DNA of 64,000 nt from Dehalococcoidia bacterium (GCA_041649635.1 JBAZMV010000001.1:426164-490163); one strand, 5' to 3'; counted from the stretch's first letter, positions 21,441 through 37,669 are shown. The notes: a model not told the origin generated them from the sequence alone. A program made the numbers and translations.

Positions 21441-21468
21441 TGTATAAATGTCTTCAAGGAACTCAGAT

Positions 21469-22404
21469 ATGAAACTTTCCATAGTAATCCCCACCTACAA
21501 CGAGGAGAAGAACGTGTCGCTGCTGCACGATGAGATAAGCGCGGCGCTCAAGAATATCGACGCCGGTTACGAGATCATCTTCGTCGATGACGGCTCAACG
21601 GACGGGACCTACAGCGCGTTGAAGGAGATGCGCGGGCGCGACGGCAGGGTCAAGATCGTCAAGTTCAAGAAGAACTTCGGCCAGTCGGCGGCCATGGCCG
21701 CGGGCTTCGAGCACGCAAAAGGCGGCATCGTGGTCACCATGGACGCGGACATGCAGAACGACCCGTCGGACATACCGCTGTTGCTCGTCGAACTGGAAAA
21801 AGGTTACGACGTCGTCTGCGGCTGGCGCAAGAAGCGCAAGGATTCCATATCGAAAAAGCTGTTCTCACGGTTTGCCAACCTGCTGCGCAGGAAACTTACC
21901 GGGGCCACGATACACGACTCCGGATGCAGCCTGCGCGCCTACAGGAAGGAGTGCCTCAAGTCGCTGGAGCTCTACGGCGAGATGCACCGCTACATTCCGG
22001 CCATGCTGTCATGGAAGGGCTACAGGATAGGCGAGGTGCGCACCAACCACAGGCCGCGCGCCCACGGCAGGACCAAGTACGGCTACCAAAGGCTTATCAA
22101 GGGCTTCCTCGATCTGATACTGATCCTGTTCTGGCAGAAGTACTCCATGCGCCCCATCCACCTGCTGGGCGGGTCCGGGATAGTGCTGGCTATCATCGGC
22201 GTGCTGCTCGGCCTCTACCTGGGCATAGAGAGGCTGGCCTTCGGCACTCCACTTGGCGACCGTCCTCTGTTCATGCTGGCGATACTGATGATAATCGTGG
22301 GCATCCAGTTCCTGGTCTTCGGCGTGCTGGCCGATATACTGGTGCGCATATACTACGGGCAGGGCGAGCGTAAATACTATACCGTCGAAGAGGTGCTGGA
22401 ATAA
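21469..22404 (+). CDS. GT2 polyprenyl-phosphate glycosyltransferase (GtrB/DPM1/ArnC-like)
   Basis: LSIVIPTYNEE, DDGSTD and DAD motifs, plus two C-terminal TM helices. Confidence 0.85.
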   Translation: MKLSIVIPTYNEEKNVSLLHDEISAALKNIDAGYEIIFVDDGSTDGTYSALKEMRGRDGRVKIVKFKKNFGQSAAMAAGFEHAKGGIVVTMDADMQNDPSDIPLLLVELEKGYDVVCGWRKKRKDSISKKLFSRFANLLRRKLTGATIHDSGCSLRAYRKECLKSLELYGEMHRYIPAMLSWKGYRIGEVRTNHRPRAHGRTKYGYQRLIKGFLDLILILFWQKYSMRPIHLLGGSGIVLAIIGVLLGLYLGIERLAFGTPLGDRPLFMLAILMIIVGIQFLVFGVLADILVRIYYGQGERKYYTVEEVLE

Positions 22405-22412
22405 AAGTCCTG

Positions 22413-23525
22413 ATGCTCAACTACGAGTATCCTCCTCTGGGCGGCGGGGCGGCCAACGCCTGCAAGTACATACTGGGCGAGCTGGCGCGGAAACAGATAG
22501 AAGTAGACCTGGTCACATCCGCGGCTAACGACAAATTCGAACAGGAGAAGATCGGCGATACGGTAACGCTGTACAAGCTGCCCGTAAACAAGAAGGACAT
22601 CCACTACTGGACGCAGAAGGAAATCCTGTCGTATACGCTTAAAGCGACTAAATTCATGCGGCGGCTGATGAAGGACAACCATTACGATGTGTGCCACGCC
22701 TTCTTCGGCATCCCGTGCGGCGCGATGGCTTACCTGTTCAAGAGACGTCTGTCTTATATCGTCTCCCTCAGGGGCTCGGACGTGCCCGGATTCAACAAGC
22801 GCTTCTCCGCCGAGTACGTTGTGCTGAAACCGATAATCAAAGAGGTGTGGAGAAGGTCCGCGTCGGTGGTAGCCAACAGCCAGGGCTTGAAGGAGCTGGC
22901 GCTGCGTTCAGACCCGAAGCGGAATATAGATATCATCTACAACGGCATAGACACGGCGCAGTTCATACCAGGCAGCGGCGGCGGGGATAAGGTAAAAATC
23001 CTCTGCGTGTCGCGGCTGATCGGACGCAAGGGCATCAGCCACCTGATAGAGAGCGCGCCCATCATCAAAGAGAAATACAATGGAAAATTTGAGATATCGA
23101 TAGTGGGCGAGGGCAACCTGGAGCAGGAGCTGCGCGCCCTGTCCGCGAGCCTGGGCGCGGACGACGTGGTTTCCTTTGCCGGGTACGTGGAGCATAGTAA
23201 ACTGCCGGAGATATACGCGGGCTCGGATATTTTCATACTGCCCTCCATGAACGAGGGCATGTCCAACACGGTGCTTGAGGCCATGGCCTGCGGCCTGCCC
23301 ATCATCACAACGGACACGGGCGGCACGCGGGAGCTGATAAAGGATAACGGCATAGTATTGAGCGAGGTTAGCGGCGCTGCCATAGCCGATGCGGTACTGC
23401 GCCTGATGACGGATGATAAGGCGCGGCGGGAGATGGGACGCAAGTCAAGGGAGTTAGCGGAGGGTTTGAGCTGGGAGAAGGTTGCGGAGAGCTATTTGAG
23501 GATGTATGAAACCATCAAACTTTAG
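22413..23525 (+). CDS. GT4 family glycosyltransferase
   Basis: EYPPLGGG N-terminal motif and EGMSNTVLEAMACGLPIITTDTGG (E-x7-E) C-terminal motif. Confidence 0.85.
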   Translation: MLNYEYPPLGGGAANACKYILGELARKQIEVDLVTSAANDKFEQEKIGDTVTLYKLPVNKKDIHYWTQKEILSYTLKATKFMRRLMKDNHYDVCHAFFGIPCGAMAYLFKRRLSYIVSLRGSDVPGFNKRFSAEYVVLKPIIKEVWRRSASVVANSQGLKELALRSDPKRNIDIIYNGIDTAQFIPGSGGGDKVKILCVSRLIGRKGISHLIESAPIIKEKYNGKFEISIVGEGNLEQELRALSASLGADDVVSFAGYVEHSKLPEIYAGSDIFILPSMNEGMSNTVLEAMACGLPIITTDTGGTRELIKDNGIVLSEVSGAAIADAVLRLMTDDKARREMGRKSRELAEGLSWEKVAESYLRMYETIKL

Positions 23526-23557
23526 TGAATATCCAATATTAAATATGACGGAATGGC

Positions 23558-24343
23558 GTGGTAATGCGGTTTCAGTTTGGTAAAAATTGGCAGTCTTTTT
23601 CCCGGAGCGCCCTGAATGAAGATAAGATAAATCAGGCGAGAAATGATTTTCTTGCACTCTTCTCAGACATTGACTTAAAGGGGAAGCGCTTCTTTGACAT
23701 AGGCTTTGGCCAGGGCCTCACTTTGCTGCTTGCCGGGGAGGCTGGAGCCAATGTTTACGGAATAGATATAGATGCGGATAACCTGTCCGCTCTGAGCGAA
23801 ACGAAGAAATTCTTTCCTGCCATCGAGATGCCTGATACGGAAGTTGTTTCAATACTGGATAACAATTTCATCGAGAGGCAGATCAAGTCCGGCGGATATG
23901 ATGTAGTGCATTCCTGGGGGGTGCTGCATCATACCGGCAATATGGAACAAGCTATCAAGAATGCGACTAAGCTGACGAAAGACCGGGGGTTCCTGATTAT
24001 ATCCATCTATAATAAACACTGGTCTTCCCCGCTCTGGCGCTGCATAAAGTGGACTTATAATAAGGCTCCCAATGTAATGCGGTGTGCGATGCTCAGGGCA
24101 TTGTATCCCATAGTCTACACGGCGAAGTGGTGTGTTACGCGGCGAAATCCGAAAAAGCATAAGCGCGGCATGGATTTCTGGCATAATCTGGTTGATTGGG
24201 TAGGAGGGTATCCTTACGAGTACGCAACGCCGCAGGCGGTACAGAAATCCGTTTGTGACCTGGGTTTCACAGTTGTGAAATACACTCCCGCGGCTGTTCC
24301 GACCGGCTGCAACGAGTTTGTATTTCAGAAGAAGGCTTCCTGA
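23558..24343 (+). CDS. Class I SAM-dependent methyltransferase
   Basis: FDIGFGQGL SAM-binding motif I, 261 aa. Confidence 0.7.
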   Translation: MVMRFQFGKNWQSFSRSALNEDKINQARNDFLALFSDIDLKGKRFFDIGFGQGLTLLLAGEAGANVYGIDIDADNLSALSETKKFFPAIEMPDTEVVSILDNNFIERQIKSGGYDVVHSWGVLHHTGNMEQAIKNATKLTKDRGFLIISIYNKHWSSPLWRCIKWTYNKAPNVMRCAMLRALYPIVYTAKWCVTRRNPKKHKRGMDFWHNLVDWVGGYPYEYATPQAVQKSVCDLGFTVVKYTPAAVPTGCNEFVFQKKAS

Positions 24344-26263
24344 ATGTGCGGGATATGCGGGCAGTTCATATTCAACGGCATAGCGCCGTCCGATATTGCT
24401 GCTACGAGCAACATGTGCTCGGTTCTGAAGCATCGCGGCCCGGATGACGAGGGTTTTTACAACGACGGCTTTATTTCGCTGGGTCATAGGCGACTGAGCA
24501 TCATAGATATAGAGGGCGGCCATCAGCCTATAAGCAATGAGGATGGAACGGTCTGGGTTATAACCAATGGCGAAATCTACAATTTTAAAGAGTTGCGAAA
24601 TGCTCTTGAGAAAAGCGGCCATGTTTTTTCCAGCAGGAGCGACAGCGAAGTTCTCGTTCACTTATATGAAGAGCAAGGACGCGCTTTGGTTAAAGAACTG
24701 CGGGGAATGTTCGCCTTCGCTATCTGGGATTCACGTAATAAGACTCTGCTTCTTGGAAGGGATAGATTAGGTAAGAAGCCTCTGTTCTATGCTTATAACC
24801 AAGAGCGTTTTCTGTTCGCATCAGAGCTCAAAGCTCTACTGCAAGAGCCAAGTATTAAACATGAAGTGAACTTAACTTCCCTGCACCACTTTCTGACGCT
24901 GCAATGGGTGCCCGGCCCCCAGACCATTATTCAGGGCGTTAACCAGCTACAGGCAGGCCATACTCTTGTCTGCTCCAACGGGCAGGTGAAAATAGAAAGA
25001 TACTGGGAACCGGAGTTCCTTCCCAAAAACAAGCTGTCAAAAGACGAAGCCCTGGAAGCCACGCAGTCATTGTTGGAAGAGGCGGTCAAGTTACGCCTGG
25101 TGAGCGATGTTCCCCTGGGAGCCTTCCTGAGCGGCGGGCTTGATTCTAGCTTGATCGTAGCCCTGATGGCGCGGGCAACGGATAAAAAGGTTAAGACCTT
25201 CTCCGTGGGGTTTACGGAAGAAGCCTTCAGCGAGTTAGAACATGCGCGTGCAGTTGCCAAATACTTTGATACCGAACACGAAGAGATATTTGTTAAGCCG
25301 GATATCATAGCATTGCTTCCCAAGCTCATATGGCATCTTGACCAACCTTTAGCCGACCCTGCCGCAATTCCAACATATTATCTATCGGAGTCTACAAGAA
25401 GGCATGTTACCGTAGCCCTCAATGGCGATGGCGGAGACGAAACCTTTGCAGGCTATCAGCGCTATTTTGCCGACGGTATAGCCGATGCTTATGCTGTTGT
25501 GCCTGCAGCAGTAAGAAATAAGCTCATTCTTCCTGTGTTGAGGAGGTTTACCGGCGTTTCGGATAAGCCCGTTGATACCGATGTTTGGGGTGCCGTAATA
25601 CGCATGCATCAGGCGGCTGATATTGCGCAGGAAGCCAGTATCATCAGGTGGGGTTCATATTTCAACTCCGACATGAAAGATGATATTTATAGTGATGAGC
25701 TGCGCAATACTCTGCGGAATACGGACTCCGTAGAACTGCTGCGTGAGACTTTCCGCCGCGCAGAAAATCATGCGGATAACAGGTTGGACAAGACACTGTA
25801 TGTTGATATGATGAACTATCTCCCCGACGACCTTCTGGTCAAGATTGACCGGATGTGCATGGCTAACTCATTAGAAGGGAGGTCGCCGTTTCTGGATCAA
25901 AAATTTGTGGAGTTTGCCTGCCGCATGCCAATAGAATTTAAGGATAAGAGAACGACTACAAAATACCTGCTGCGGGAACTGGCGAAAAAGATAATCCCTC
26001 AGGATATTGCCGCGCGGCGCAAGCACGGTTTCTCGGTTCCCATTGGAAGCTGGATCCGGTCGGAACTGAGAGATATGACATATGAAACATTGCTGAGCCC
26101 ACAGGCATTGAGCAGAGGCTATTTCAAGCAGCAAGCGCTTGAAAATCTTCTGGACGAACATTGTGCAAAAAAGGCTGACCATGGAAAGCGGATATGGGCA
26201 TTGCTTTGCCTGGAATTATGGCATCAAGTTGTTATAGATTATACAAAAATACCGATGAGTTAA
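24344..26263 (+). CDS. asnB: Asparagine synthase (glutamine-hydrolysing) family amidotransferase, glycan-cluster type
   Basis: N-terminal MCGI Cys nucleophile, SGGLDSS PP-loop motif, 639 aa. Confidence 0.85.
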   Translation: MCGICGQFIFNGIAPSDIAATSNMCSVLKHRGPDDEGFYNDGFISLGHRRLSIIDIEGGHQPISNEDGTVWVITNGEIYNFKELRNALEKSGHVFSSRSDSEVLVHLYEEQGRALVKELRGMFAFAIWDSRNKTLLLGRDRLGKKPLFYAYNQERFLFASELKALLQEPSIKHEVNLTSLHHFLTLQWVPGPQTIIQGVNQLQAGHTLVCSNGQVKIERYWEPEFLPKNKLSKDEALEATQSLLEEAVKLRLVSDVPLGAFLSGGLDSSLIVALMARATDKKVKTFSVGFTEEAFSELEHARAVAKYFDTEHEEIFVKPDIIALLPKLIWHLDQPLADPAAIPTYYLSESTRRHVTVALNGDGGDETFAGYQRYFADGIADAYAVVPAAVRNKLILPVLRRFTGVSDKPVDTDVWGAVIRMHQAADIAQEASIIRWGSYFNSDMKDDIYSDELRNTLRNTDSVELLRETFRRAENHADNRLDKTLYVDMMNYLPDDLLVKIDRMCMANSLEGRSPFLDQKFVEFACRMPIEFKDKRTTTKYLLRELAKKIIPQDIAARRKHGFSVPIGSWIRSELRDMTYETLLSPQALSRGYFKQQALENLLDEHCAKKADHGKRIWALLCLELWHQVVIDYTKIPMS

Positions 26264-26375
26264 CTAATCTAGAGGAGGTATAGGTATTAGTTCTCTTATA
26301 TCGCACTTAATTAAGCCTAAACGACATTCAAGAACAGGGAAAATAAATGTACTCCACGTAATAGATCATCTTGGA

Positions 26376-27491
26376 TTGGGCGGAGCACAGACACTGTTAT
26401 TGGATTTGTTAAAGGATTGGGACAGCGAAAAATACAGAGTATATGTCTGCGCTTTAAAGAAGCCAGGGGTATTGGATAAGCAAGCGAAAGCTCAGGGTTT
26501 AAACGTAAGTTATTTTGACAGACAGAAGTATGATCCCAGAAAGATTCTTGACCTGATCAGATTCATCAGGAAGAATAAGATTCAAATAGTTCACACGCAT
26601 CTGCTTGGCGCGGGCATTATTGGGCGGATTGCCGCAACTATTTGCCAAGTGCCAGTTGTGATTGTGCACGACCATAGCGGGTTCCCAATGTTGAGCAATA
26701 TCCCTACAGTATATTCGCGTCTTCTACGTATGATGGATAAACCACTGACGTATGTTACTGATAGAGTTATTGCAGTATCGTATTCAGTGAAAGAGCGGCG
26801 TATTAAAAGGGGATTACCAGATAAAAATAAGGTTGTTGTTATCCACAATGGTATAGATATAAATAAATTCAATAGTGATCTTTATGACAATGACAAAATC
26901 AGAGAGACTATGTCTATCGGTGCATCGGATGTAGTTATAGGGGCTGTTGGGCGTTTAAGTCCTGAGAAGGGGCTTGATTTTCTACTTGAGGCTGCGTCAA
27001 AGATTTATAGTAAATATACGGAAGCTAAGTTGGTCATAATTGGCGATGGGCCATGCAGAAATATGTTAGAGCAACAAACCATCGACCTGGGGATAAGTGA
27101 GAAGGTCATTTTCACCGGATTCAGAGATGATGTTCCCGAATTGTTATCGGCGATGGACATATTTGTTTCATCGTCGCTTTTTGAAGCGTTTCCGATGGTT
27201 ATACTAGAGGCAATGTCAATGTCCAAACCGGTGGTTGCTACAAATGTGGGGGGTATTCCAGAGATGATAATACCCGGTGTGACAGGTTTTATAGTGCCGC
27301 CAGGTGATTCAGAGGCTTTATATACAGCTATTATTCAATTGTTGGATGATCCGGACAGAAGGATAACGTTTGGTCAAAATGGGCGGCAACGTATTGAAGA
27401 GTTTTTTACAACGCAAGTCATAGTGAATAAACTAGTAGAGTTATATGATGAACTTGTAGGTTGTAAATTAAATAAGGCACATCTTGAATGA
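26376..27491 (+). CDS. GT4 family glycosyltransferase (true start probably upstream, non-canonical)
   Basis: GGAQ motif and EAFPMVILEAMSMSKPVVATNVGG. The conserved first beta-strand VLHVIDHLGLGGAQ lies in-frame upstream of the first TTG (26376). There is no ATG/GTG/TTG back to the in-frame stop at 26265. A GAGGAGG SD at 26272-78 sits 7 nt before an ATT at 26286. Confidence 0.7.
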   Translation: MGGAQTLLLDLLKDWDSEKYRVYVCALKKPGVLDKQAKAQGLNVSYFDRQKYDPRKILDLIRFIRKNKIQIVHTHLLGAGIIGRIAATICQVPVVIVHDHSGFPMLSNIPTVYSRLLRMMDKPLTYVTDRVIAVSYSVKERRIKRGLPDKNKVVVIHNGIDINKFNSDLYDNDKIRETMSIGASDVVIGAVGRLSPEKGLDFLLEAASKIYSKYTEAKLVIIGDGPCRNMLEQQTIDLGISEKVIFTGFRDDVPELLSAMDIFVSSSLFEAFPMVILEAMSMSKPVVATNVGGIPEMIIPGVTGFIVPPGDSEALYTAIIQLLDDPDRRITFGQNGRQRIEEFFTTQVIVNKLVELYDELVGCKLNKAHLE

Positions 27492-27506
27492 TGATGGAGA
27501 TCAAAT

Positions 27507-28730
27507 TTGAAAACTAATCTTCAAATAATTTCTAGGTTGCTATTAAATCTTCTGTTGTATAGTTTGTCTTATATAACTCCCAAAAATGAAGAATTGATAT
27601 TATTGGGGTCCGGCAAAGGGGGTTCCTTTAAAGGAAATCCGAAATATTTATATCTCTATGCCAATCGTGAAAGGGAGGTTAAGAACCGTTTCCAGTTTGT
27701 GTGGATTACTCAGAATAGAACCATACTTAAAAAACTCAAGGATGAGGGGTATCCAGTCGTTGATAAGTATAGTTTGAAAGGTTTTTGGACCATATTAAGG
27801 TCCAGTAATTTAGTTATAGAGCAATCCGCTAAAGATGTCAGCTATTTAGGTGTGCTTAACGGAAGGTTTAACATTATTCAAACTTGGCACGGAACCTTAT
27901 TTAAGAAAGTTGCTTTTGACGCCAAAAAAGTAGATCAAGAGAAAACATTGTTGACTCGAATATTCGATTATTTTCTTAATAAAGAATTTAATAATTACAT
28001 ATTCATTTGTTCTGCATCGGAGGAGACCTCTAGTAAGTTGATCCCAGCATTCAGAAATAATAATGTAGTGATTACCGGTTATCCGAGGAATGATATATTT
28101 TATTCCAATGAGATATCGTTTAACGATGTATTCAAAATCCTATCCCTAGGTTCTTATGAAAGGGTTGTAGTGTATGCTCCGACTTTTAGAGAAATCGCAA
28201 CATGTAAAGGCCCGTTTTCGGATACATTACTAGTTAGATTGAATAGTTTCCTAGCGGACAATAATTACATAATGCTGATTAAGAAACATCCTTTTGAAAA
28301 GGTATTGGTATCTATAACGGGATACTCTAATATCAAAGACGTGTCTAAAGAAGTTGATGATGTACAGGAACTATTAGCATATACGGACATTCTTATCACT
28401 GATTATTCAAGTGTTTATTTCGACTATTCGTTAACTGATAAACCAATTATCTATTACCCTTATGACTATAAAGGATATTTAAAGAACTGCCGGGAATTCT
28501 ATTATGACTATTATGAAGAGCAACCCGGGCCGTTCGCACACACTGAAGAGGAGCTATTAGTATTGCTTAAAGATATCAATGACTGGTTTAATGATGAAGG
28601 ATACAGAATTAAATATAGAAATTTTAAGAACAAATACAATCACTTTCAAGATGGTAATAGTTCTGAAAGGACTTATCAGATAATTATCGATCTTCTGAAT
28701 TCAAGAAAATCTGCAGGAAAGTTAGAGTAA
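27507..28730 (+). CDS. CDP-glycerol/CDP-alcohol poly(polyol-phosphate) phosphotransferase family (TagB/TagF-like)
   Basis: ILITDYSSVYFDY signature of the TagF family. TTG start behind a ggaga SD. Very AT-rich (~30% GC). Confidence 0.7.
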   Translation: MKTNLQIISRLLLNLLLYSLSYITPKNEELILLGSGKGGSFKGNPKYLYLYANREREVKNRFQFVWITQNRTILKKLKDEGYPVVDKYSLKGFWTILRSSNLVIEQSAKDVSYLGVLNGRFNIIQTWHGTLFKKVAFDAKKVDQEKTLLTRIFDYFLNKEFNNYIFICSASEETSSKLIPAFRNNNVVITGYPRNDIFYSNEISFNDVFKILSLGSYERVVVYAPTFREIATCKGPFSDTLLVRLNSFLADNNYIMLIKKHPFEKVLVSITGYSNIKDVSKEVDDVQELLAYTDILITDYSSVYFDYSLTDKPIIYYPYDYKGYLKNCREFYYDYYEEQPGPFAHTEEELLVLLKDINDWFNDEGYRIKYRNFKNKYNHFQDGNSSERTYQIIIDLLNSRKSAGKLE

Positions 28731-28735
28731 CGGCA

Positions 28736-29260
28736 ATGAGACAAAGAGTAATGGACTTATTGATGGCAACTAAGTTTTTAGAAGTTACTGAAATCAAAGC
28801 GTCACAACTAGCCTTTGAGGAGAGAGTACACCTGAACTGTTTTCACTGTATACGTTATGGTGTGAACTGGACCTGCCCTCCAAAAATTCCACAAGTAGAC
28901 TATCAAAAGCTCATTTGTGAATATGAAAACCTACTGTTAGTTTACTGCAAAATGCCGTTGACAGCCGATAAATTTGAAGTCGTTAGAAGGACGTCAACTA
29001 ACACTCTTCACCATGCTTTGCTTGCCGCCGAGAAGCTATTATGGGAATCAAACTATCCGCTGGCCATTTCTTTTATGGGGGGTTCATGTAAACTTTGCCC
29101 CGAAGGTTGTGATGAACTTGCCTGCCGGCATCCTGATAAAGCAAGAATTCCTCTGGAAGGAATCGGGGTAAACGTAGTAAAATCAGCTGAGAATGTTGGA
29201 TTAAATATTGTTTTCCCACCTGTGGATTACATGTTCCGGGTAGGATTACTAGGATGGTGA
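28736..29260 (+). CDS. Cys-rich hypothetical protein (putative metal-binding, possibly DUF2284-like)
   Basis: CFHC...C and CKLCPEGCDELAC clusters. AT-rich. Confidence 0.5.
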   Translation: MRQRVMDLLMATKFLEVTEIKASQLAFEERVHLNCFHCIRYGVNWTCPPKIPQVDYQKLICEYENLLLVYCKMPLTADKFEVVRRTSTNTLHHALLAAEKLLWESNYPLAISFMGGSCKLCPEGCDELACRHPDKARIPLEGIGVNVVKSAENVGLNIVFPPVDYMFRVGLLGW

Positions 29261-29263
29261 GAA

Positions 29264-29980
29264 ATGAAAGTGATTATCCTCGCTGCAGGTTTGGGAACAA
29301 GACTTAGACCACTGACCACAAATATACCCAAGTGCCTTTTTAAATTAAGTAAGGATCAGACTATCATTGGCAGAATGGTAAACATCATTAAGAAAATTTC
29401 AGATTCTCCTGTTTACGTTGTTACCGGTTTTATGCATGAAAAAATAGAGGGTCAACTGGCAGGCGTGGAATTTGTTCATAACCCTTTCTACCGTGTAACC
29501 AATAGTATCGTATCTCTTTGGTTTGCCCGTGAACATCTCGATGATGATGTGATCATCATTAATTCTGATATAGTCATACAAGCCCCAATATTCGAAGAGG
29601 TTTTGAAAATTGAACATCCCGCCGCAGTATTGATAGATTCATCCAAAGCGCGCACTGCAGATTACAAGGTAGCCACCTATAATGATAGGGTTATCATGAT
29701 GAGTAAAGAACTTACTGCTAATTCCGGTGAATACGTTGGTATCACCAAACTTTCCAGGGCAGCAGCAGGCAGTCTAAAACAAAAAATTGAAGAAATGGTT
29801 AAAAATGATCAGATAGACGAGTGGTACGAGAATGCATTGGTGAACATGATACTCGATGATGATTTTGACCTGAATTATGTTGACGTCTCGCATCTGCAGT
29901 GGGTTGAAATTGACACAGTAGATGATCTCTTAATGGCCAGAAAAATATGTGATATGGAAAGAAGTGGTAATGACGTTTAA
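29264..29980 (+). CDS. Sugar/alcohol-phosphate nucleotidyltransferase (LicC-like cytidylyltransferase family)
   Basis: MKVIILAAGLGTRLRPLT NTP-transferase signature. 238 aa, like LicC. Confidence 0.75.
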   Translation: MKVIILAAGLGTRLRPLTTNIPKCLFKLSKDQTIIGRMVNIIKKISDSPVYVVTGFMHEKIEGQLAGVEFVHNPFYRVTNSIVSLWFAREHLDDDVIIINSDIVIQAPIFEEVLKIEHPAAVLIDSSKARTADYKVATYNDRVIMMSKELTANSGEYVGITKLSRAAAGSLKQKIEEMVKNDQIDEWYENALVNMILDDDFDLNYVDVSHLQWVEIDTVDDLLMARKICDMERSGNDV

Positions 29981-30650
29981 TGTCGCCTTGGTCACAGGAG
30001 CTACCGGCGGAATAGGTAGCGCTATCAGTGAAGAATTAAGAACCAGCGGGTTTCGGCTCGCTCTTCTCAGTCGGAGCATTTCTTGTCATGAATCCGAGAG
30101 CATGCTGGCACAACGTTGTGATGTTACTAAGGTAGATGAAGTGGAAAAAGCCGTTACCGCTACTTTGAAAAAATTCGGCAACATTGATGTTGTAATCAAT
30201 TGTGCTGGCAGGAGTCATCTTGGTACAGTAGATGAACTCACAGAACAAGATATACAGGCTGTATACGACGTTAATGTCAAAGGAACAATCAATGTCTGTA
30301 AAGCGGTTTTACCATGTATGAAGAAACAGAAGTCAGGTTATATTATCAATATCGGGTCATTGCGCGGTATTGAATACGGCGTTGGTAAGTCTGCATATTC
30401 AATGAGTAAATCTGCTGTAATTGCTTTTTCCAATGTCTTAGCTATGGAAACCGCCGAGTACGGAATAAAAGTTACCGTGATTAATCCGGGCTTTGTCCAG
30501 ACCAGCCTGATAAGGCATAGGATAGCTGAAGAAAAACTCAGGGCTGAAGATCTTACTCAGCCTGGTGATATTGCCAAAGTCGTGTTGTTCCTTCTCGAAT
30601 TGTCTCCAGGCGCCAGTATTGTTGAGTTAAATATTGGGCGTTTATGGTAA
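29970..30650 (+). CDS. SDR family oxidoreductase
   Basis: TGATGGIGS and YSMSK (YxxxK) motifs. Overlaps the upstream gene by 11 nt. Confidence 0.8.
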   Translation: MTFNVALVTGATGGIGSAISEELRTSGFRLALLSRSISCHESESMLAQRCDVTKVDEVEKAVTATLKKFGNIDVVINCAGRSHLGTVDELTEQDIQAVYDVNVKGTINVCKAVLPCMKKQKSGYIINIGSLRGIEYGVGKSAYSMSKSAVIAFSNVLAMETAEYGIKVTVINPGFVQTSLIRHRIAEEKLRAEDLTQPGDIAKVVLFLLELSPGASIVELNIGRLW

Positions 30651-30741
30651 TGCGGTTTCAAAACATGAAAACTTAACCGCGCAGCTCACTGCAGACACAT
30701 ATTTTCAGCAAGAACTTATAGAGTTTCGCAAAGACGAATGA

Positions 30742-32028
30742 ATGATCAAACGCTTTTATGATTTAACCAAGTATAAGCTTGCAACGATTGTTTCCGCGAA
30801 ACTGATAAAGGAAACTGCTTGGAGCTTCTTGGCGCAAGGCTCTGCCTTTATTTTTTTCATAGGGCTCAATCTTTTTCTCGCCCGTTACCTTGGCCCGGAC
30901 CGCTTCGGTGAATGGTCTTTCTTCTTTTCCATCTTAAGCATAGTCCTTCTTGTTTCATATTTAGGCATTAACGCGTCAGCCCGCAAGTTTATCGCTCAGC
31001 ATAATGAGACGGCTGAATTGAAGGCTGTATTGCGCTCCTCGGTTAAACTGAGGGTCATCCTAAGCCTGGTTTTTGCCCTGGTTATGCTGTCTTTAAGCAA
31101 GCCTCTGGCCGTCTGGCTGGATCGCCCAAGCTTTGAGGTTTTGTTCTATGCCGCCGCCCCGCTAGTATTCTTTGCCAGCCTAGTTGAATATCTGAAAAAT
31201 GCTTTTCAAGGGCTGCACCGCCTGAAATATGACTTCTATATAAATCTGTCTGAATACGGACTCAAGCTTTTACTGGCTGTTTGCTTTTTGCTCATTCTTA
31301 ACGAGATTATTGGGTTGGTTTTCGCCTTTAACCTGGCTTTTATCGTTACAACGGTATTGGGTTTTTACTTTCTTTACCGCCATTTCTATAAGAACCGGCC
31401 GGATTCAGGGACTGATTACACCAGACAGCTATTGCAATACAGCCTGCCGCTGTTCGTTATCAGCATCGGCTTTCTAATTGCTACTGAAATAGATACTGTA
31501 ATGATAGGTATTCTAAGCACGGATTACGAGGTGGGTATATACGCGGTGGCCAAGCAGATAATCATCAAGCTGCCGCATATCGCCTTGGTGATATCGCTGG
31601 GCACCATGCCGCTGTTTGCCAAGTTGAATCAGGATAATAAAGAGTATCTGAAAGCACTGTTCTACCGGTTGTTGAAAATCAACACGGTGATATTTGGCTC
31701 GATCATTATATTAATACTAGCTGCGGGTTGGTATTTCATCCCTTTGATATTTGGCGCAGAATATAAGGACTCAGTCTTGCCCCTGGTTATACTGATACCA
31801 TATTTGATTATTTATTCTTATTCAATATTCCTGTCTTCCTTCCTCGACTACCGGGGCAAGGCTAGAAAAAGGGCCATTAACTTGATTATCGCGTTATTAC
31901 TAAACCTTGGACTGAATCTGGTTCTAATTCCAAGATACGGAGCAGTAGGTGCGGCAATTGCCACCTCTGTTTCCTATTTCCCGTATTTAGTGCTGAATTG
32001 GCTTGAAGTAAGAAAAAGCTTCCAATAG
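30742..32028 (+). CDS. Polysaccharide biosynthesis protein / Wzx-like flippase (MOP superfamily)
   Basis: 428 aa, ~12 predicted TM segments, and located within the glycan cluster. Confidence 0.7.
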   Translation: MIKRFYDLTKYKLATIVSAKLIKETAWSFLAQGSAFIFFIGLNLFLARYLGPDRFGEWSFFFSILSIVLLVSYLGINASARKFIAQHNETAELKAVLRSSVKLRVILSLVFALVMLSLSKPLAVWLDRPSFEVLFYAAAPLVFFASLVEYLKNAFQGLHRLKYDFYINLSEYGLKLLLAVCFLLILNEIIGLVFAFNLAFIVTTVLGFYFLYRHFYKNRPDSGTDYTRQLLQYSLPLFVISIGFLIATEIDTVMIGILSTDYEVGIYAVAKQIIIKLPHIALVISLGTMPLFAKLNQDNKEYLKALFYRLLKINTVIFGSIIILILAAGWYFIPLIFGAEYKDSVLPLVILIPYLIIYSYSIFLSSFLDYRGKARKRAINLIIALLLNLGLNLVLIPRYGAVGAAIATSVSYFPYLVLNWLEVRKSFQ

Positions 32029-32037
32029 CCCGCCATT

Positions 32038-34749
32038 TTATTCCCTTACTTCTACGATCCAAATACAATCATTTGGATTATTATTTATACATATTTTTTC
32101 GATGGGTTCATATGTATAATATTCAATTAGCGGAGTTTCCGCAGCAACTCTAGCATATAAATATCTTTCTCCTTCTTCATATGCTTTCACATGCTTTTCC
32201 CAAATAGGCTGTATATGTGAGGATAGTACTAAATACTCTATTTCAAGTTCCTCATTAAATGGGTTGTCACGTCCTCTCCAATAACTTGTGCCTATAAAAA
32301 ATCTATCAAAGCCCTCTACGTCAACCCAGACTACCATATTTTCTGCGTTATCCCAAGAATTGACGATTTGTGCTAGTTTGTACCCGCCCATTCCCCATGA
32401 ATAAGAAATTCGATAATCTTTAATGTTCAAATGATTGTTATATAAAAGAAAGTAAGGTGCTGCAAAAAATGTTGTGATAAGTGCTGCAGCTATCAATGCG
32501 GTAGTAACTATTTTCGTATGTTTAAAAACGTAAATAAAAAAAGTTGCTGATAATATTGAGTAAAGAGGATATAACATAATCTGGTATCTACATGAAGTCA
32601 CAAAACCACCTAAAGAAGAACCGACTATATATACAAACATTGTTAAAAAGATAATAGATATTAAGAACTTATCTTGGTTGGTGATATTTATATTTAAACG
32701 TTTCTTTAAAGGTAATATCAAAGCCCAAAAACATATTCCGAAAAGTATTGGAAATGTCATGGTGAAGGCTGTCATGTAAGATGATGTGAATAAATCTTTG
32801 TAGAAAGACACCTCACCCCTTGCAGATTCGTAAAAAATGTAATGGTTAAAATCAAAAAGTGCGTTGTTAAGAAATATATTAGCCATTAATACAATAAGAG
32901 CTATTAATGTAAGTGAGCTAAAAACGTATATTACCACAGTGGGAATATCGAATTTGCTTTTTAAATACTTAGTAATACGGCCTCGAAGAGCTATCAATTC
33001 GATGAATATTAACAGCAGTATAAGTAGGAAATACTTCAGACCTGGTGTTAGAATTCCTGCACCAATAGTTCCTTTGATAATCCGGGATGGTTCTACCCAT
33101 GTTGCTGGAAATAGAATTGTATAAATAATAATGGAAATTACGTACAGTGCCAAGATATGCAGACAACGTGAAAAGAATTGTTCACGGGTAGTATTTCTTG
33201 AGAGATATTCTAGATAGATGCTAAGGAAAAAGATGACATAGAAAATGGCGGCAAAGTATTTGCATATCAACGCAAGGCCCAAGAACACTCCTGAATATAT
33301 AATGTATCTCAATTTATTTGTTTTAAGATAGAGAAAGAATGTGATGAACGATAAAAATGAGACGCTCCAGAGAGTAGCGTCCGGATTAACAATCTGGCTA
33401 ATTCCAATAAGGATAGGATTGAGCGCAACAAGCCCTGTTACTAATAGAGCATGGTTTTTCCGCAGTAATTTTTTAAGGAAATGGTATATAAGAAATAGCA
33501 TGAGGAAATTAAATATGACAATTGGTAACCGCCAATAAAATAAATAATTTTCATATATTAAAGGGTCTGCTTTATATTCCTCATGATCCATAAAAAAGTT
33601 GACAGTGCCAGCGAGAAGAGACGGCAGCACGCCAGGTTTATCATTGATATACGTGCCTTCCCAGTCACCGGAGGCGAGTGAATCATAGAGTTGCGGCACC
33701 CTGGTATCTACCCATTTTGGCTCGTCAACTGTCATAAATTGACCAAGGTGGTGTGTTCCGAAACCAAGAAAGAGAAAGCAGCAGAGTAGAAGTGCTGCGC
33801 TATACCACCACCCCTCTTTATACATCCACCTAATGAACCACCTAAAAATTGGGACCCTGTTAATCCGAGGGAACCGCGTACCAAAAGATCTCTTCCTCTC
33901 CGCTTCTTCCGCTCCTTCCTCCTCTATTTTAACTGTGACTTTCAGCTTCTGCCGGTTCATCCAGAAGAACATGATACCAAAGATAACGGTGGCCACTATA
34001 AGACCGGTTCGGCTGCCCTCCAGTGATGTCAGGTCAAAAATAGCTTGCAGAGCCAGAACCAATAGAAGTACTAAGAACAGAGCCATCGTCGCCACCCGCG
34101 CAACCCTTCCAACCCATCGCCTCTTCCCATGTCCCGCCATCGTCTCCGCGGGCGCGACGTCGGGGGTTGAGAGGCCCGCGGCCGCTCGTTCCGCCCTTAT
34201 CACCGAGGCCAGCGTGCGGGGGGCGGGTCTGCTGGGTTTCGATCTGCCTGTCCTCAGCCGGGACCTGTACAGCATGACCATCACGGCTATAATAGCTATC
34301 AACTCCGCGGCTATGGTGCTGATGATCAGGGCGTTGAGGTTTATGTGGTATGAGACGCTGCCCTCCCAGAATGTTTCCACCGCAACCAGCGTCAGCAGGA
34401 TGATGGGAAATATCAGCAGCAGCGCCAGAGCGGCGCGGCTCACCGTCCTCACCGTCTCGCTCTGGCCGGACTGCCATTCCGCGAACCGCTCCCTCAGCCC
34501 GCTCAGGCTTATCCCGCGCGCGCGCAGGTAGCGCCCCAGATATTTATTGAGGATGACAGCGACTATCAGGAAGGCCAGGACGATGGCAAGAACTACCAGC
34601 ACGCTGATGTTCATGAGGTTGCCCACGCTGTCGTCCCAGATATACTCGATGAGGATGAGCAATATGGAAACGGCCAGCAGCGAGATGCCGGCGCCCTTGA
34701 GGGAGATGTATTGGTCTATCTTTTTGATCAGGGATTTAATGGTTTCCAT
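32038..34749 (-). CDS. GT-C fold membrane glycosyltransferase (GT39/ArnT/PMT-like) with a ~290-aa GC-rich N-terminal membrane extension; compositionally chimeric
   Basis: VDEPKW acidic DE motif in the first extracytoplasmic loop after TM1 of the GT-C core, multiple TM helices, and a C-terminal soluble domain. GC drops from ~65% (34.7-33.9 kb) to ~30% (33.7-32.0 kb) inside one ORF. Confidence 0.7.
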   Translation of the reverse strand: METIKSLIKKIDQYISLKGAGISLLAVSILLILIEYIWDDSVGNLMNISVLVVLAIVLAFLIVAVILNKYLGRYLRARGISLSGLRERFAEWQSGQSETVRTVSRAALALLLIFPIILLTLVAVETFWEGSVSYHINLNALIISTIAAELIAIIAVMVMLYRSRLRTGRSKPSRPAPRTLASVIRAERAAAGLSTPDVAPAETMAGHGKRRWVGRVARVATMALFLVLLLVLALQAIFDLTSLEGSRTGLIVATVIFGIMFFWMNRQKLKVTVKIEEEGAEEAERKRSFGTRFPRINRVPIFRWFIRWMYKEGWWYSAALLLCCFLFLGFGTHHLGQFMTVDEPKWVDTRVPQLYDSLASGDWEGTYINDKPGVLPSLLAGTVNFFMDHEEYKADPLIYENYLFYWRLPIVIFNFLMLFLIYHFLKKLLRKNHALLVTGLVALNPILIGISQIVNPDATLWSVSFLSFITFFLYLKTNKLRYIIYSGVFLGLALICKYFAAIFYVIFFLSIYLEYLSRNTTREQFFSRCLHILALYVISIIIYTILFPATWVEPSRIIKGTIGAGILTPGLKYFLLILLLIFIELIALRGRITKYLKSKFDIPTVVIYVFSSLTLIALIVLMANIFLNNALFDFNHYIFYESARGEVSFYKDLFTSSYMTAFTMTFPILFGICFWALILPLKKRLNINITNQDKFLISIIFLTMFVYIVGSSLGGFVTSCRYQIMLYPLYSILSATFFIYVFKHTKIVTTALIAAALITTFFAAPYFLLYNNHLNIKDYRISYSWGMGGYKLAQIVNSWDNAENMVVWVDVEGFDRFFIGTSYWRGRDNPFNEELEIEYLVLSSHIQPIWEKHVKAYEEGERYLYARVAAETPLIEYYTYEPIEKICINNNPNDCIWIVEVRE

Positions 34750-35395
34750 ATGTTTAGATGAGTGTAATAGTGTGGGTAAATATTATCAACCCCCTGGAAT
34801 CCCCCTTGAAAGGGGGAAACAACATCCGAACCCCCTGTAGTCCCCCATACGTTGGGGGACGTTTTAATTAATATAGGGGACACCCCTATAACCCCGTCAG
34901 GAGACCCTGTCTCCTGTACCTCTGTTTCAGCCTGTCATTGCGAGAAGTCCTTCTAGATATCTTTATTCTGGAAGGACGCCGCGGCAATCTCAACTATAAT
35001 CAACCCCCTGTATCCCCCAATCTTGGGGGACGTAAAAAAAGAGCTGGGGGACACCCCCAGTTCCCCCGGAAGGAGCTTCTCCTTCACCTCTTTCCTTTGC
35101 AACACAGGGGACACCCCTATAACCCCGTTCCTTCCGCGGAAGGATACCTCTGTTTCAGACTGTCATTCTGAATCCTTGCCTGGAATGATGAAGAATCTCG
35201 ACGAGATCCTTCGGCGCTACCTCAGGATGACATGCTGCGAAATAATTAATCCCTACGTGGTGGGTTAAACAAACCCACCCTACAACTACGAACCGTCATT
35301 CCGGCCCCGTATCGCCGTACGGGGTAAACTCCGGCCGGAATCCATATCGGGCGAACGCCGTTCGCCCCTACTACACGCTACACGCTACCCGCTAC
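34750..35395. repeat. Mosaic repeat block (B,B',A,F,B,A',A,F',D,E)
   Basis: Modules as defined in the summary. Confidence 0.85.
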
Positions 35396-37669
35396 TCATT
35401 TCCACACCGGCGGGATCTCCAGCTCGATAACGATGGAATCCACAGGGATGGTCTTGTCCGCATCGGCAGCCAGGTCCAGGTGCGGCACCATCAGGCAGAA
35501 GCTCAGCGTGTCATCGACGATAGACAGGTCCTCCGTCTTCCATCTGGCCCGCGCCGTCGTCCAGCCGTCGTAGCTGTCGGTCACATAGTAGCCGTCGTAG
35601 TTCACGACGATGTAATCCACGTACTCCTTGAAATCCGAGACGTAGGTCTCAAGGCCGGCCACCTCGCAGCGCCTGGGCAGGAAGAAGGAGTCCGGCGTGA
35701 AGGACATGTAGCCGTTGAACTCCAGCGTCAGGTTCTGCCTGGCCGTCACTATCATGTACGAGCCCGGCGCGAGGTTCACCGCGAAGGGCTTATCCATCTC
35801 ATCGATGTAGAGCCCGGCATAGAAGCCGTCCCCGATCACGGCCGCCTGCTGAATGCCGCTTGCGTCATCGCAGGAGAACTCCGCCCGCTGCAGCGACAGG
35901 CCCTGCGTGTACAGCGCCAGCGCGTCGGCCGGTGCGCCCGCGTTGGAGGTGTAGCCCGTGTCCGCCGGGGCGGGGGTGATGCTGTCGTCCAGCACCAGCT
36001 TGCCCTGATTGATGCTTATTTGCCTTATCAGGAGGTCTTCACCCGTCATCTCTATGCGATATGCCCCCGTCGACAGATTGGAGGCCGTAAGCGACGCACC
36101 CTGCATCGGGCCCGGTTCGCCGCCCGCCGAGGCGTCGCCGTCGTCCGCTATCGAGGCGTTGGCCGTTAGATCGCCGGCGAGGTCGTAGATTTCGATGCTC
36201 AATGCGTCCGCGCCCTCGTCCTGATTCAAATCCTGTTTCGTCACGCTCAGCTCAAGGACGCCGTTATCGACGAATGTCCAGAAGGTGTGGCTTCCCTTTA
36301 ATGAAATATTTATGTCAAGCCAGCCCTTGCCCTCCTCTACGGTGTTGAAGGACGGGATGAAGAGAGATTCCTCCGTTAGCGAGATGAGGGCCCCGGTGGC
36401 TTCCAACGCAACATCGCCCAAGCTCGACCTCAGGCGGTAGAGTCCCGGCTCCAGAGCGCCGGACGTGTACCACGTTCCCGACTCGTTGACGTACGTCTCC
36501 AGCCTCATCTCATCGCCCCAGACGGTGACGTACTGCGGCACCTGCTCCCCGGGCGAGGAGAACCTTATCTCGCCGGGGGCCGCCAGGTACAGCCAGGCCT
36601 CGGCCGCGGCCGTGTTCCCGCCTTCGTAGCTGTAGCCCGCCAGGTACAGTCCGTCCGCGGCTATCGCTTTGCCCTGGTTATAGGCGATGTTCGTGATTAT
36701 GAAATCGATCTCCTCACCCTGCGGCGCGACGGCGAGGCGGTAGACGCCCCTGTCGCTCTGCTCCATGTTTATATGGCAGCGCTGTTTCTGTCCCAGCATC
36801 TTGCTGTCCGTGAAATTAAAATCGTCGAATATAACCTCGCTCACGGCAAGGGTCCCGTCCGGCGCGTAGAGCGACACGTTAATGTTATCCAGCCCCGCGA
36901 TGCGGTTCAGGTCGCGCTTCTCCACCGTCAGCTCGAATTCTCCGCCGTTGGAGTACAGGTAGAATTCCTGCGCGCCCAGCAGCGCGGCGCCGCCGTCCAG
37001 GGGGGCGTACGCGGCGCGGGGATCCGGCAGCAGCGCGGAGAGCCCGGCCCCGGCATCGTAATCGCCGAACTGCGTATTGACGTACTCCTGCAGCGTCACC
37101 ACCTGGTTTATGTCCAGCGACGGGTCGCCGCTGGCTATCAGCGAGCCCAGCGGCGGGTTGCCCAGGGGGTCCATGACCGTGGACAGGGGCGGGGGGTTCT
37201 CCGTGTCGGTGGCGTAGACCATCATCGAGCCGTTCTGCGTCACCAGCGGCAGATCGACGAGCTGGCCGTAGAACGGAACGTATGCGTACCTCAGGCTGTA
37301 GCCTTCTTCACACTGCGCGCCGATGACGAAGATGCCGTCCTCCGGGAAGTTGTCCGCGAACCTGACGGCCACCGCGACCTCGTCCGCCTGCGATAATCTC
37401 GGATCGGTGAGCTCGAAATAGACCGTGTCACCCGTTATCTCGCGATAGGTCACGCTGCCGTTGGACATCGCCTCCGAGAAGCCGGACGCGTTCCCCGAGA
37501 GGCGCGCCTTGCCGCTCAAATCGTTGCCGCCGACATCGATCCTGTGTTCGGGCGAGCCGCCCAGGGGCAGGAAGTTGATGTAGAGGATGATGAGCACGAC
37601 CGCAAGCGGCGCCAGCCAGAGGAGCCTGACGTACTTCTTCTTTGACGACGGTCTGCTCTCTTCGCTCAT
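35396..37669 (-). CDS. Large secreted/membrane-anchored hypothetical protein (757 aa)
   Basis: N-terminal KKKYVRLLWLAPLAVVLIIL signal anchor, then a long Gly/Asp/Tyr-rich, apparently beta-rich ectodomain. Translationally coupled (4-nt overlap) to the upstream GT-C gene. Confidence 0.6.
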   Translation of the reverse strand: MSEESRPSSKKKYVRLLWLAPLAVVLIILYINFLPLGGSPEHRIDVGGNDLSGKARLSGNASGFSEAMSNGSVTYREITGDTVYFELTDPRLSQADEVAVAVRFADNFPEDGIFVIGAQCEEGYSLRYAYVPFYGQLVDLPLVTQNGSMMVYATDTENPPPLSTVMDPLGNPPLGSLIASGDPSLDINQVVTLQEYVNTQFGDYDAGAGLSALLPDPRAAYAPLDGGAALLGAQEFYLYSNGGEFELTVEKRDLNRIAGLDNINVSLYAPDGTLAVSEVIFDDFNFTDSKMLGQKQRCHINMEQSDRGVYRLAVAPQGEEIDFIITNIAYNQGKAIAADGLYLAGYSYEGGNTAAAEAWLYLAAPGEIRFSSPGEQVPQYVTVWGDEMRLETYVNESGTWYTSGALEPGLYRLRSSLGDVALEATGALISLTEESLFIPSFNTVEEGKGWLDINISLKGSHTFWTFVDNGVLELSVTKQDLNQDEGADALSIEIYDLAGDLTANASIADDGDASAGGEPGPMQGASLTASNLSTGAYRIEMTGEDLLIRQISINQGKLVLDDSITPAPADTGYTSNAGAPADALALYTQGLSLQRAEFSCDDASGIQQAAVIGDGFYAGLYIDEMDKPFAVNLAPGSYMIVTARQNLTLEFNGYMSFTPDSFFLPRRCEVAGLETYVSDFKEYVDYIVVNYDGYYVTDSYDGWTTARARWKTEDLSIVDDTLSFCLMVPHLDLAADADKTIPVDSIVIELEIPPVWK

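Follow-up and report, generated by a model that had tools for sequence, protein, structure and literature searches.

We propose that positions 22.45-34.1 kb of a 64,000-nucleotide (nt) stretch of DNA from a Dehalococcoidia bacterium (GCA_041649635.1, JBAZMV010000001.1:426164-490163; the whole stretch is referred to as the window) are very probably the variable, serotype-like centre of a cell-surface glycan locus, in which cassettes are replaced under the guidance of conserved flanks and the right exchange junction lies inside a single open reading frame (ORF). This ORF (32038-34749, minus strand) encodes a predicted membrane glycosyltransferase (GT) of 903 amino acids (aa) and, to judge from its sequence, it is a true mosaic of a native front and a body that belongs to a foreign family. 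The constant flanks comprise UGDH, an epimerase and a GT2 enzyme on the left and, on the right, a second glycosyltransferase of the GT-C class (GT-C521), the gene that we term p757 and the first ~205-215 codons of the 903-aa gene. The exchangeable block between them contains two GT4 enzymes (GT4a and GT4b), a methyltransferase, an AsnB-type amidotransferase, a TagF-like protein, a DUF2284 protein, a LicC-like cytidylyltransferase, a short-chain dehydrogenase/reductase (SDR), a Wzx flippase and the GT-C catalytic body. This is a clear but essentially ordinary instance of the swapping of a surface-glycan locus, a known evolutionary process, and its uncommon feature is the intragenic junction, by which a membrane module that is orphan and clade-specific is retained while the GT-C bodies behind it are exchanged.

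Composition and the junction in the 903-aa gene

The window as a whole has a guanine-plus-cytosine (GC) content of 53.4%, with a value of 0.414 within 23530-33900 and of 0.557 elsewhere. The drop reported in the original prediction, which had described this interval as an AT-rich insert, is real, but the background is ~56% rather than the ~60% given there. A profile taken in 300-nt windows runs from ~0.58 at 23.2-23.5 kb to 0.45-0.53 for 23.5-26.2 kb, 0.32-0.44 at 26.3-29.3 kb and 0.28-0.39 at 32.0-33.7 kb, and rises again to 0.60-0.62 at 34.0-34.6 kb, which preserves the pattern formerly assigned to 23.5-26.3, 26.3-29.3 and 32.0-33.8 kb with adjusted figures. The GC content of third codon positions (GC3) is the sharper divider between native and foreign genes. 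Native values of 0.81-0.87 are found in TypA, UGDH, the epimerase, GT2, p757, GT-C521 and GMD, and the cassette genes have values of 0.34-0.57, with GT4a standing apart at a near-native 0.76; GT4b and the TagF-like, DUF2284, NTP-transferase and SDR proteins account for the range of 0.34-0.39. The original prediction had named a uniform composition as its refutation, and recalculated GC and GC3 are both non-uniform.

Within the 903-aa gene the GC3 is 0.80 over codons 1-205, 0.53 over codons 206-383 and 0.30 over codons 384-903, and the best three-segment fit to the third positions places the steps at 34134 and 33600. The two-segment log-likelihood ratio is 69.2, compared with a permutation maximum of 8.3 (n=500) and with 18.4 for the runner-up ORF in the window; the composition step is far beyond chance and has no match among the other long ORFs. 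A switch inside this gene had been predicted and is plainly present, but the high-GC stretch covers the first ~205-215 codons rather than the first ~290, and the main step lies at ~34.10-34.13 kb, ~250 bp upstream of the 33.8-33.9 kb proposed for the junction. The zone of intermediate GC3 (codons 206-383) is mirrored at the opposite edge of the cassette by the methyltransferase and AsnB genes. A second donor family beginning at the second GC3 step (~33.6 kb) was considered and is not supported, as similarity to the family found in the Candidate Phyla Radiation (CPR) and in DPANN archaea is unbroken from residue ~241 to residue 903.

Four independent markers converge on codons ~205-222, which is why the main junction is placed at ~34095-34134, in an Arg/Pro-rich cytoplasmic linker (codons ~205-219) that immediately precedes the third transmembrane hairpin. 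The first is the GC3 step near codon 205 (34134). The second is the alignment with the corresponding gene on L005, a contig of the closest relative, in which nt identity is 58-73% over codons 1-113, 80-100% over codons 114-218 (34409-34095), 56-71% over codons 219-~320 and random past ~33800, so that the 80-100% identity stops at ~34095. The third comes from BLASTP, where the homologous protein P0068 covers residues 1-211 only (47%) and strong matches to the body (~50%) begin at residues 219-250. The fourth is an AlphaFold 2 (AF2) model, built with 69 homologues in the alignment, in which the predicted local distance difference test score (pLDDT) steps at residue 211, from 37-57 ahead of it to 82-98 over residues 211-903. 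The separate searches with the two halves that had been proposed as a check return different affinities, clade-specific for the front and CPR/DPANN-like for the body, and with the GC3, nt identity, homology and AF2 breakpoints in agreement the predicted recombination or replacement junction within the ORF is upheld.

The native N-terminal module (residues 1-215; 34105-34749, minus strand) consists of two predicted transmembrane hairpins and a basic linker, and the imported body (residues 216-903; 32038-34104, minus strand) of a third hairpin, a linker, a GT-C membrane domain with a VDEPKW loop and, at the C-terminus, a soluble domain. A cytoplasmic N-terminus and hairpins at residues 19-66, 106-159 and 219-264, spaced by K/R-rich cytoplasmic linkers, are predicted from hydropathy and the positive-inside rule, with GT-C transmembrane helix 1 at residues 313-331. 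Since each hairpin comprises two helices, the fusion would leave the topology of the GT-C domain unaltered. What had been described as a multi-transmembrane N-terminal extension is native in its first two hairpins only. By homology, hairpin 3 belongs to the imported body rather than to the native module: the CPR/DPANN homologues have similar hairpins ahead of the same acidic linker and a KFP-I-KIP...W-YKEGW motif, all in one polypeptide.

Sequence family, acidic loop motif and predicted fold all identify the body as a GT-C fold glycosyltransferase. The 903-aa protein matches PF13231 (PMT_2) at 46.0 bits (cut-off 26.1) and PF02366 (PMT) at 31.0 bits (cut-off 22.7), residues 378-547. The helix at residues 313-331 is followed by an outer loop, V-D342-E343-P-K-W, in which D342 does not vary among the 69 homologues and E343 is conserved in at least 90% of them. 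A sequence search of the PDB with a profile of the body gave no match, and a fold search was used instead. The first 28 ranks of Foldseek against the PDB are all GT-C enzymes (STT3, AglB, DPY19, ALG9/12, ArnT, PglB, Pmt4 and AftA), each with a probability of 1.0 and with target-normalised template modelling scores (TM-scores) of 0.25-0.51, the best being oligosaccharyltransferases of the STT3/AglB type.

Homologues of the body number in the dozens, with identities of 35-54%, and its nearest known relatives are, on present matches, in low-GC CPR/DPANN genomes. A genome scan for the family, with one genome per GTDB species and two peptide patterns, found 36 loci and none from Chloroflexota. The taxa include Nanoarchaeia (50%), Saccharibacteria (51%) and Woesearchaeota (53%, partial), as well as Magasanikiibacteriota, Gracilibacteria, other Patescibacteria, Methanoperedenaceae and metagenome-assembled genomes (MAGs) labelled 'Bdellovibrionales'. 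The local GC of these loci is mostly 0.26-0.47, and that of the closest ones is 26-38%, akin to the ~33% of the body itself. In an all-against-all comparison the body from the window scores 559-678 bits (49-54% identity) with CPR/DPANN-family proteins, compared with 125, 37 and 51 bits for the syntenic bodies of L005, L006 and P0068; its identity to the bodies of the four close relatives is 24-35%. A Nanoarchaeia MAG whose GT-C body is among the closest (locus L009, JBAZFK010000008.1, 8539-11107) also carries adjacent homologues of the cassette methyltransferase (42%) and AsnB (35%), which hints at a shared ancestry beyond the GT-C body alone, and a Gracilibacteria locus (L013) has AsnB and Wzx homologues. 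In the fetched CPR/DPANN loci there is no homologue of the TagF-like protein, DUF2284 protein or cytidylyltransferase, and the SDR has one weak match (L022). The transfer of the whole cassette together with the GT-C gene was considered and finds no support, the homologues in the fetched loci being limited to the methyltransferase and AsnB in L009 and to AsnB and Wzx in L013.

Conserved flanks and replaced cassettes in close relatives

Relatives of the locus were located through p757 homologues. Contigs L008 and L005, both from sample ERR7850084 and both ending in a repeat-rich spacer, are represented by a p757 of 86% identity; in L006, a 1.2-Mb Dehalococcoidia MAG contig, and in L062 the identity is 63%, and on the contig encoding P0068 (ENA ERZ1426824) it is 61%. 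The right side of L006, L062, L008 and the P0068 contig has the same order, with a GT-C of ~520 aa, p757 and then a GT-C of ~800-900 aa that carries the conserved module; on the contig encoding P0092, the GT-C gene is preceded by no more than a partial ORF. In all of the relatives a convergent cassette follows, which on contigs that are long enough ends at GT2, and on the P0092 contig the epimerase and UGDH lie beyond GT2. The cassettes themselves hold methyltransferases, GT2s and Wzx in L005, a CmcI-type methyltransferase, GT2s, Wzx and a GT4 in L006, and three GT4s, Wzx, an acetyltransferase and a methyltransferase on the P0092 contig. The suspicion that this is a swapped variable module is thereby supported by four relatives with the same flanks, different cassettes and remote GT-C bodies, and the synteny comparison that had been recommended finds conserved flanks (GT2 on one side; GT-C521, p757 and the hairpin module on the other) around a replaced interior.

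The drop in GC3 within the GT-C gene also recurs in the relatives, from 0.77-0.97 to 0.1-0.5 in L005 and from 0.67-0.83 to 0.2-0.5 in L006, as well as in L062. Such a recurrence of architecture and GC pattern had been regarded in the original prediction as grounds for abandoning it. The recurrence is there, but the bodies are non-orthologous, and the same architecture with non-orthologous bodies implies that replacement is recurrent at this site. The fusion is kept in at least five alleles with different bodies, those of the window, L005, L006/L062, P0068 and P0092.

The extent of the exchanged block follows from the comparison with L005. Its nt homology to the window is confined to GT2 (22415-21396, 90.7%), the first ~40 nt of GT4a and the 5'-terminal 1 kb of the GT-C gene, and the DNA between these blocks, ~11.4 kb long in the window and ~8.7 kb long in L005, is unrelated. 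GT2 itself (21448-22404, plus strand; Pfam Glycos_transf_2; GC3 0.82), an enzyme resembling the polyprenyl-phosphate sugar transferases ArnC and PgfS, has 94% aa and 90.7% nt identity to L005 9775-10710 and forms the left conserved flank. The next gene, GT4a (22413-23525, plus strand; Pfam Glycos_transf_1/Glyco_transf_4), has only 29% aa identity to the positional GT4 of L005, and nt homology stops at ~22453, so GT4a is, by these alignments, part of the variable block despite its near-native GC. The nt breakpoints and the divergence of GT4a together define an exchanged block of ~22.45-34.1 kb, which exceeds the low-GC block. Hence the left border originally set at 23530 is correct for the fall in GC but not for the variable block, which begins at ~22.45 kb.

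The coding sequence of the hairpin module would serve as the right homology arm, and GT2 together with the 5' end of the GT4 gene as the left arm, for homologous recombination, by which whole cassettes with their matching GT-C body could pass between related strains. Each type of body would first have had to enter by an illegitimate join, made in frame within the permissive cytoplasmic linker. We assign the role of homology arm because an island of near-identity lies at 34409-34095 amid divergent DNA and codons 1-113 are unusually divergent, which agrees with O-antigen loci, for which one published account describes junctions within shared genes and a mosaic in which divergence grows toward the central block (PMC3715488).

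The hairpin module, its deep relatives and alternative explanations

The outer-loop motif of the native module is E-x-(I/F)-W-(D/E)-(D/G)-S-V. An exhaustive phmmer search with residues 1-215 against 1.84 billion (1.84e9) cluster representatives gave six matches only: the 903-aa protein itself, P0042 (the L005 gene), P0068, P0092, a 101-aa fragment and P0093, which is a stand-alone protein of 374 aa with three hairpins. The module, as defined by these matches, is restricted to a clade; it is 50-90% conserved across the syntenic genes and is invariably found just downstream of p757. The latter gene (35396-37669, minus strand; GC3 0.85) belongs to an orphan family that has no Pfam or NCBIfam match. 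Its product is predicted to be anchored by an N-terminal transmembrane segment and to have an all-beta ectodomain made up of several jelly-rolls (AF2 pLDDT 79.8), and a fold search returned only domain-level matches to jelly-roll or carbohydrate-binding-module-like (CBM-like) structures, with a TM-score of ~0.1. It lies upstream of the hairpin module in all examined relatives and between the two GT-C genes in the close ones, where the second of these genes, GT-C521 (37666-39231, minus strand; Pfam PMT_2; GC3 0.84), is itself conserved, at 77% aa identity in L008 and 72% in L006.

In deeper relatives (L046-L050, L053 and L056/57), whose p757 is ~40% identical, the next gene after p757 is a distinct ORF of 150-250 aa with one hairpin and the signature LL-ETIWEGSVS-YLNLNYLLIAV, which scores 28-41 bits against the module profile. 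The end of this ORF shares 23-77 nt with the beginning of a separate gene for a GT-C of ~540 aa (for example, 12796-13248 and 13220-14836 in L047), which suggests translational coupling of the hairpin protein and the GT-C enzyme. Four of the five deep-relative GT-Cs that were scanned match PMT_2; they are 49-81% identical to each other, reach at most 35 bits against any fused body and have the native GC3 of their neighbours. The probable ancestral state, if the gene orders are a guide, is a hairpin module that was an independent unit adjoining a GT-C and that became fused to it in the clade of the window, where low-GC versions then replaced the GT-C part. The existence of fused and separate states, and the fixed position after p757, suggest that the module may be a functional partner or adaptor of the resident GT-C.

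These separate genes raise the question of whether the 903-aa ORF gives rise to two proteins, for example by internal initiation, in which case its in-frame continuity would be inconsequential. The overlapping ORFs of the deep relatives, the stand-alone P0093 protein, and the Met residues at positions 203 and 223 are in keeping with such an arrangement. We nevertheless consider it improbable, given that 903 codons run without a stop, that the fusion is retained in at least five alleles with different bodies, that the imported body carries a hairpin 3 and a basic linker of its own, and that the CPR/DPANN homologues have N-terminal hairpins in one polypeptide.

It is also quite improbable that the locus has been inherited vertically and that its AT-richness and divergence reflect local mutational bias or diversifying selection without horizontal transfer. 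The body from the window is 49-54% identical (~600 bits) to CPR/DPANN proteins, compared with 24-30% (37-125 bits) to the syntenic bodies of relatives whose flanks are 61-86% identical, the gene content of the cassettes and not merely their sequence differs, and the deep relatives hold a conserved GT-C of native composition at the same position. Moreover, nt identity breaks sharply and does not decay gradually. Vertical descent would account for the low GC of the cassettes in all relatives and for borders that have no mobile-element genes or tRNA, and glycan loci with a GC below the genome average are known from other organisms (PMC5867893).

A third alternative, to which we give a very low probability, is a classical genomic island that was carried by a mobile element and landed in the GT-C gene by chance. 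Its attractions are the abrupt change in composition, a 117-nt direct repeat at 21100-21216 and 34826-34942, and a gene for a DUF559/Vsr-like endonuclease between p757 and the GT-C gene on the P0068 contig. Yet no integrase, transposase or phage gene has a Pfam match among the cassette ORFs, there is no tRNA or Rfam element at the cassette borders, the nearest tRNAs being at 51 and 53.5 kb, and the junctions lie within homologous coding sequence, as is usual for homologous replacement. The repeats on either side come from a family present at 14 or more intergenic sites and lie outside the exchange junctions; the 117-nt copies at 21.1 and 34.8 kb were evaluated as limits of an island and rejected, as they are members of a genome-wide intergenic family and fall outside the homology breakpoints.

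More generally, dispersed short palindromic repeats (units of 28-117 nt, e.g., AATATAGGGGACACCCCTATAACCCCGT) fill many intergenic spacers and are common to L006 and L008. Sites in the window include 20000-20514, 21099-21304, 34785-35371, 39436-39698, 44650-45083, 46131-46558, 58047-58614 and 62971-63078. They are dense in the spacer 5' of the 903-aa gene (34750-35395), in which the window has repeats only and the P0068 contig has its DUF559/Vsr-like endonuclease, and the contigs of the relatives break at such repeats.

The least probable alternative, which we regard as negligible, is an assembly or binning chimera in which low-GC CPR/DPANN reads were mis-joined to a Dehalococcoidia contig to create an artificial ORF: the window does come from a MAG and the two assemblies that bear the locus are 100% identical, perhaps through the same reads, but a chimera would need two mis-joins, with native DNA resuming beyond each and the reading frame kept exactly at one, the identical join comes from two different assemblers, the fused architecture is also found in relatives from ERR7850084, JGI 3300037067 and 3300063110, ERZ1426824 and ERZ1426843, and the relatives for which DNA is available repeat the intragenic drop in GC3.

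The reading that we prefer, replacement of the cassette and the GT-C body between conserved flanks, has several points against it. The GC3 of the 903-aa gene has three levels rather than two, and the second step (~33600) is not accompanied by a change of family affinity. The outside matches top out at ~50% identity and pinpoint no donor, so neither a recent transfer from any sampled genome nor one from CPR/DPANN organisms specifically is supported, and a genome scan by two patterns could overlook divergent members of the family in Chloroflexota. Every relative has a low-GC cassette, which could mean a long-resident pool of such cassettes and not a recent import. That L008 and L005 adjoin within one genome is deduced from their shared sample and contig-end repeats, and the P0068 and P0092 contigs are represented by gene tables alone. 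The ENA megahit and Logan assemblies, in which the locus is 100% identical across both composition borders, may stem from the same reads. Finally, the Wzy family and the families of initiating phosphoglycosyltransferases (WbaP/WecA type) are unmatched among the ORFs scanned at 16.5-41.2 kb.

The predicted cassette product and comparable loci

The genes of the cassette, all on the plus strand apart from the 903-aa gene, point to a glycan that is decorated and then exported, and Pfam agrees with the identities given earlier to the GT4, TagF-like, Cys-rich and GT-C proteins. The compositional island starts with an S-adenosylmethionine (SAM)-dependent methyltransferase (23558-24343; Pfam Methyltransf_23/11/12; GC3 0.565), which is followed by an AsnB-type glutamine amidotransferase (24344-26263; Pfam Asn_synthase and GATase_7; GC3 0.525) that scores 531 bits with TIGR01536, above the cut-off, and that probably amidates a sugar acid. 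GT4b (26376-27491; Pfam Glycos_transf_1, 2.8e-47; GC3 0.39) precedes a TagF/TarF-like CDP-alditol phosphotransferase (27507-28730; Pfam Glyphos_transf, 5.7e-73; GC3 0.34), which matches PF04464 at 246 bits over profile positions 2-366 of 367, near full length, and the PDB structure of TagF (3l7i) at 1.5e-31, and which does not reach the NCBIfam equivalog cut-offs for TarF, TarL or TarB. A Cys-rich, predicted metal-binding DUF2284 protein (28736-29260; 3.6e-31; GC3 0.37) is next, and then a LicC-like cytidylyltransferase (29264-29980; Pfam NTP_transf_3; GC3 0.37), whose nearest relative in the PDB is the phosphocholine cytidylyltransferase LicC (1jyk, 1.4e-12), an SDR (29949-30650; Pfam adh_short, 1.3e-50; GC3 0.39) and a Wzx/MOP-type flippase (30742-32028; Polysacc_synt 3.6e-29, Polysacc_synt_3 3.6e-24; GC3 0.52). 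NCBIfam provides an equivalog-level name through the generic AsnB model and for none of the other proteins of the locus, and specific substrates are therefore unassignable.

We suggest that the product of the cassette is probably a lipid-linked glycan with a phosphate substituent derived from a cytidine diphosphate (CDP)-alcohol. The GT4s would add sugars, and the methyltransferase and amidotransferase would add methyl and amide groups; the LicC-like enzyme and the SDR would make a CDP-activated donor, from which the TagF-like enzyme would transfer a phospho-alcohol. The glycan would then be flipped by Wzx and transferred to an exoplasmic acceptor by the GT-C enzyme. The nearby ArnC-like GT2 and Wzx are circumstantial evidence that the GT-C may use a polyprenyl-phosphate-linked donor on the exoplasmic face, and the presence of Wzx with several cytoplasmic GTs suggests that the donor carries an oligosaccharide and not just one sugar. 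The diversity of the cassettes is presumably driven by phage or predator pressure.

In O-antigen and capsule loci, such as Salmonella rfb, conserved flanks also surround a divergent centre of glycosyltransferase, sugar-modification and Wzx genes, and exchange proceeds without mobile-element machinery. O-antigen clusters tend to be low in GC. The traits of this type that are found here are the non-homologous centre between flanks (GT2 at 91% nt identity; p757 of L008 at 86%), the low GC and the Wzx flippase. The locus differs from O-antigen loci in that its junction divides one polypeptide, into a constant membrane module and a GT-C catalytic body, and in that there is no Wzy, Wzz or initiating phosphoglycosyltransferase among the ORFs annotated at 16.5-41.2 kb. 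The host differs as well, as members of the Dehalococcoidia are reported to have neither peptidoglycan nor lipopolysaccharide.

A second comparison is with Haloferax, in which aglB has been replaced by horizontal transfer, intragenic recombination occurs and variable glycosylation clusters lie below the genome-average GC (PMC5867893). As in the window, these low-GC variable glycosylation genes sit beside a GT-C (AglB), but the sequence family here is Pfam PMT_2 and not STT3, and the Haloferax agl clusters are not described as having a constant N-terminal hairpin module ahead of swapped bodies.

The locus also resembles the three-component polyprenyl-phosphate-sugar systems, which consist of a GT2 (GtrB/ArnC), a flippase and a GT-C (GtrC/ArnT/PMT), in having an ArnC/PgfS-like GT2 in its flank and two PMT_2 GT-Cs. 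GT2 has C-terminal transmembrane helices and aligns end to end with ArnC (212.7 bits; cut-off 529) and PgfS (177.7 bits; cut-off 500), in both cases far below the equivalog cut-offs, and a GT2, a GT4 and a GT-C of the body family co-occur in many CPR and 'Bdellovibrionales' loci. The low GT2 scores, and a cassette with Wzx and several cytoplasmic GTs, set the locus apart from the three-component systems. In phage tail-fibre and receptor-binding genes, a conserved 5' part doubles as structural adaptor and homology arm, and intragenic recombination swaps the 3' part that sets specificity. The evolutionary logic is the same, but this is an analogy only, as the class of protein is unrelated and the role of the hairpin module as adaptor is putative.

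A search of the literature on Dehalococcoidia glycan loci and on the transfer of CPR/DPANN GT-Cs found nothing specific, and the diversity of surface glycans among uncultured bacteria of the subsurface and of groundwater has hardly been explored. Flank-guided cassette replacement would mean that a Dehalococcoidia lineage diversifies its envelope glycan as pathogens and haloarchaea do. The five or more bodies behind one module constitute a natural 'domain-swap' series with which the role of N-terminal hairpins in GT-Cs could be probed, and the orphan hairpin module and the orphan 757-aa ectoprotein are flagged as conserved partners. The imported part has its nearest known relatives among CPR/DPANN-type GT-Cs, which is relevant to the exchange of genes between ultra-small symbionts and the organisms that may host them. 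A bolder proposal, which we rate as unlikely, is that the two-hairpin E-x-I-W-(D/E)-G-S-V module is the dedicated docking adaptor of the clade and tethers any GT-C to envelope machinery (p757 and GT-C521), making the catalytic body a plug-in that is acquired with its cassette from unrelated low-GC organisms, possibly host-attached CPR/DPANN. If so, surface-glycan enzymes would flow directly across domains between episymbionts and hosts, and a 'constant anchor, variable enzyme' design of membrane glycosyltransferases could be general.

A number of minor features lie outside the cassette. Of the left-hand genes, the epimerase ORF (18797-19978, plus strand) has a 5' extension of ~77-99 codons with a GC3 of 0.60, compared with 0.88 for the remainder; its start is probably over-called, and the true start would be near the Met before 'ESILVTGGAGFIG'. 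The repeat-rich spacer between the epimerase and GT2 holds an ORF with a HicA toxin domain (20686-21075, plus strand). Further upstream, a c-di-GMP-I-GGC riboswitch variant (16338-16419, plus strand; RF03167, 63.4 bits compared with a gathering score of 59) precedes an ORF (16485-17270) whose product is secreted, rich in Gly and anchored in the membrane at its C-terminus, and an ORF of 2646 codons (2158-10095, minus strand) has a GC3 of 0.68 and a mild internal shift in composition. On the right, the window contains a bacterial large signal recognition particle (SRP) RNA (44315-44579, minus strand; RF01854, 199 bits) and tRNAs for Leu-TAG (50989-51073) and Lys-CTT (53505-53580).

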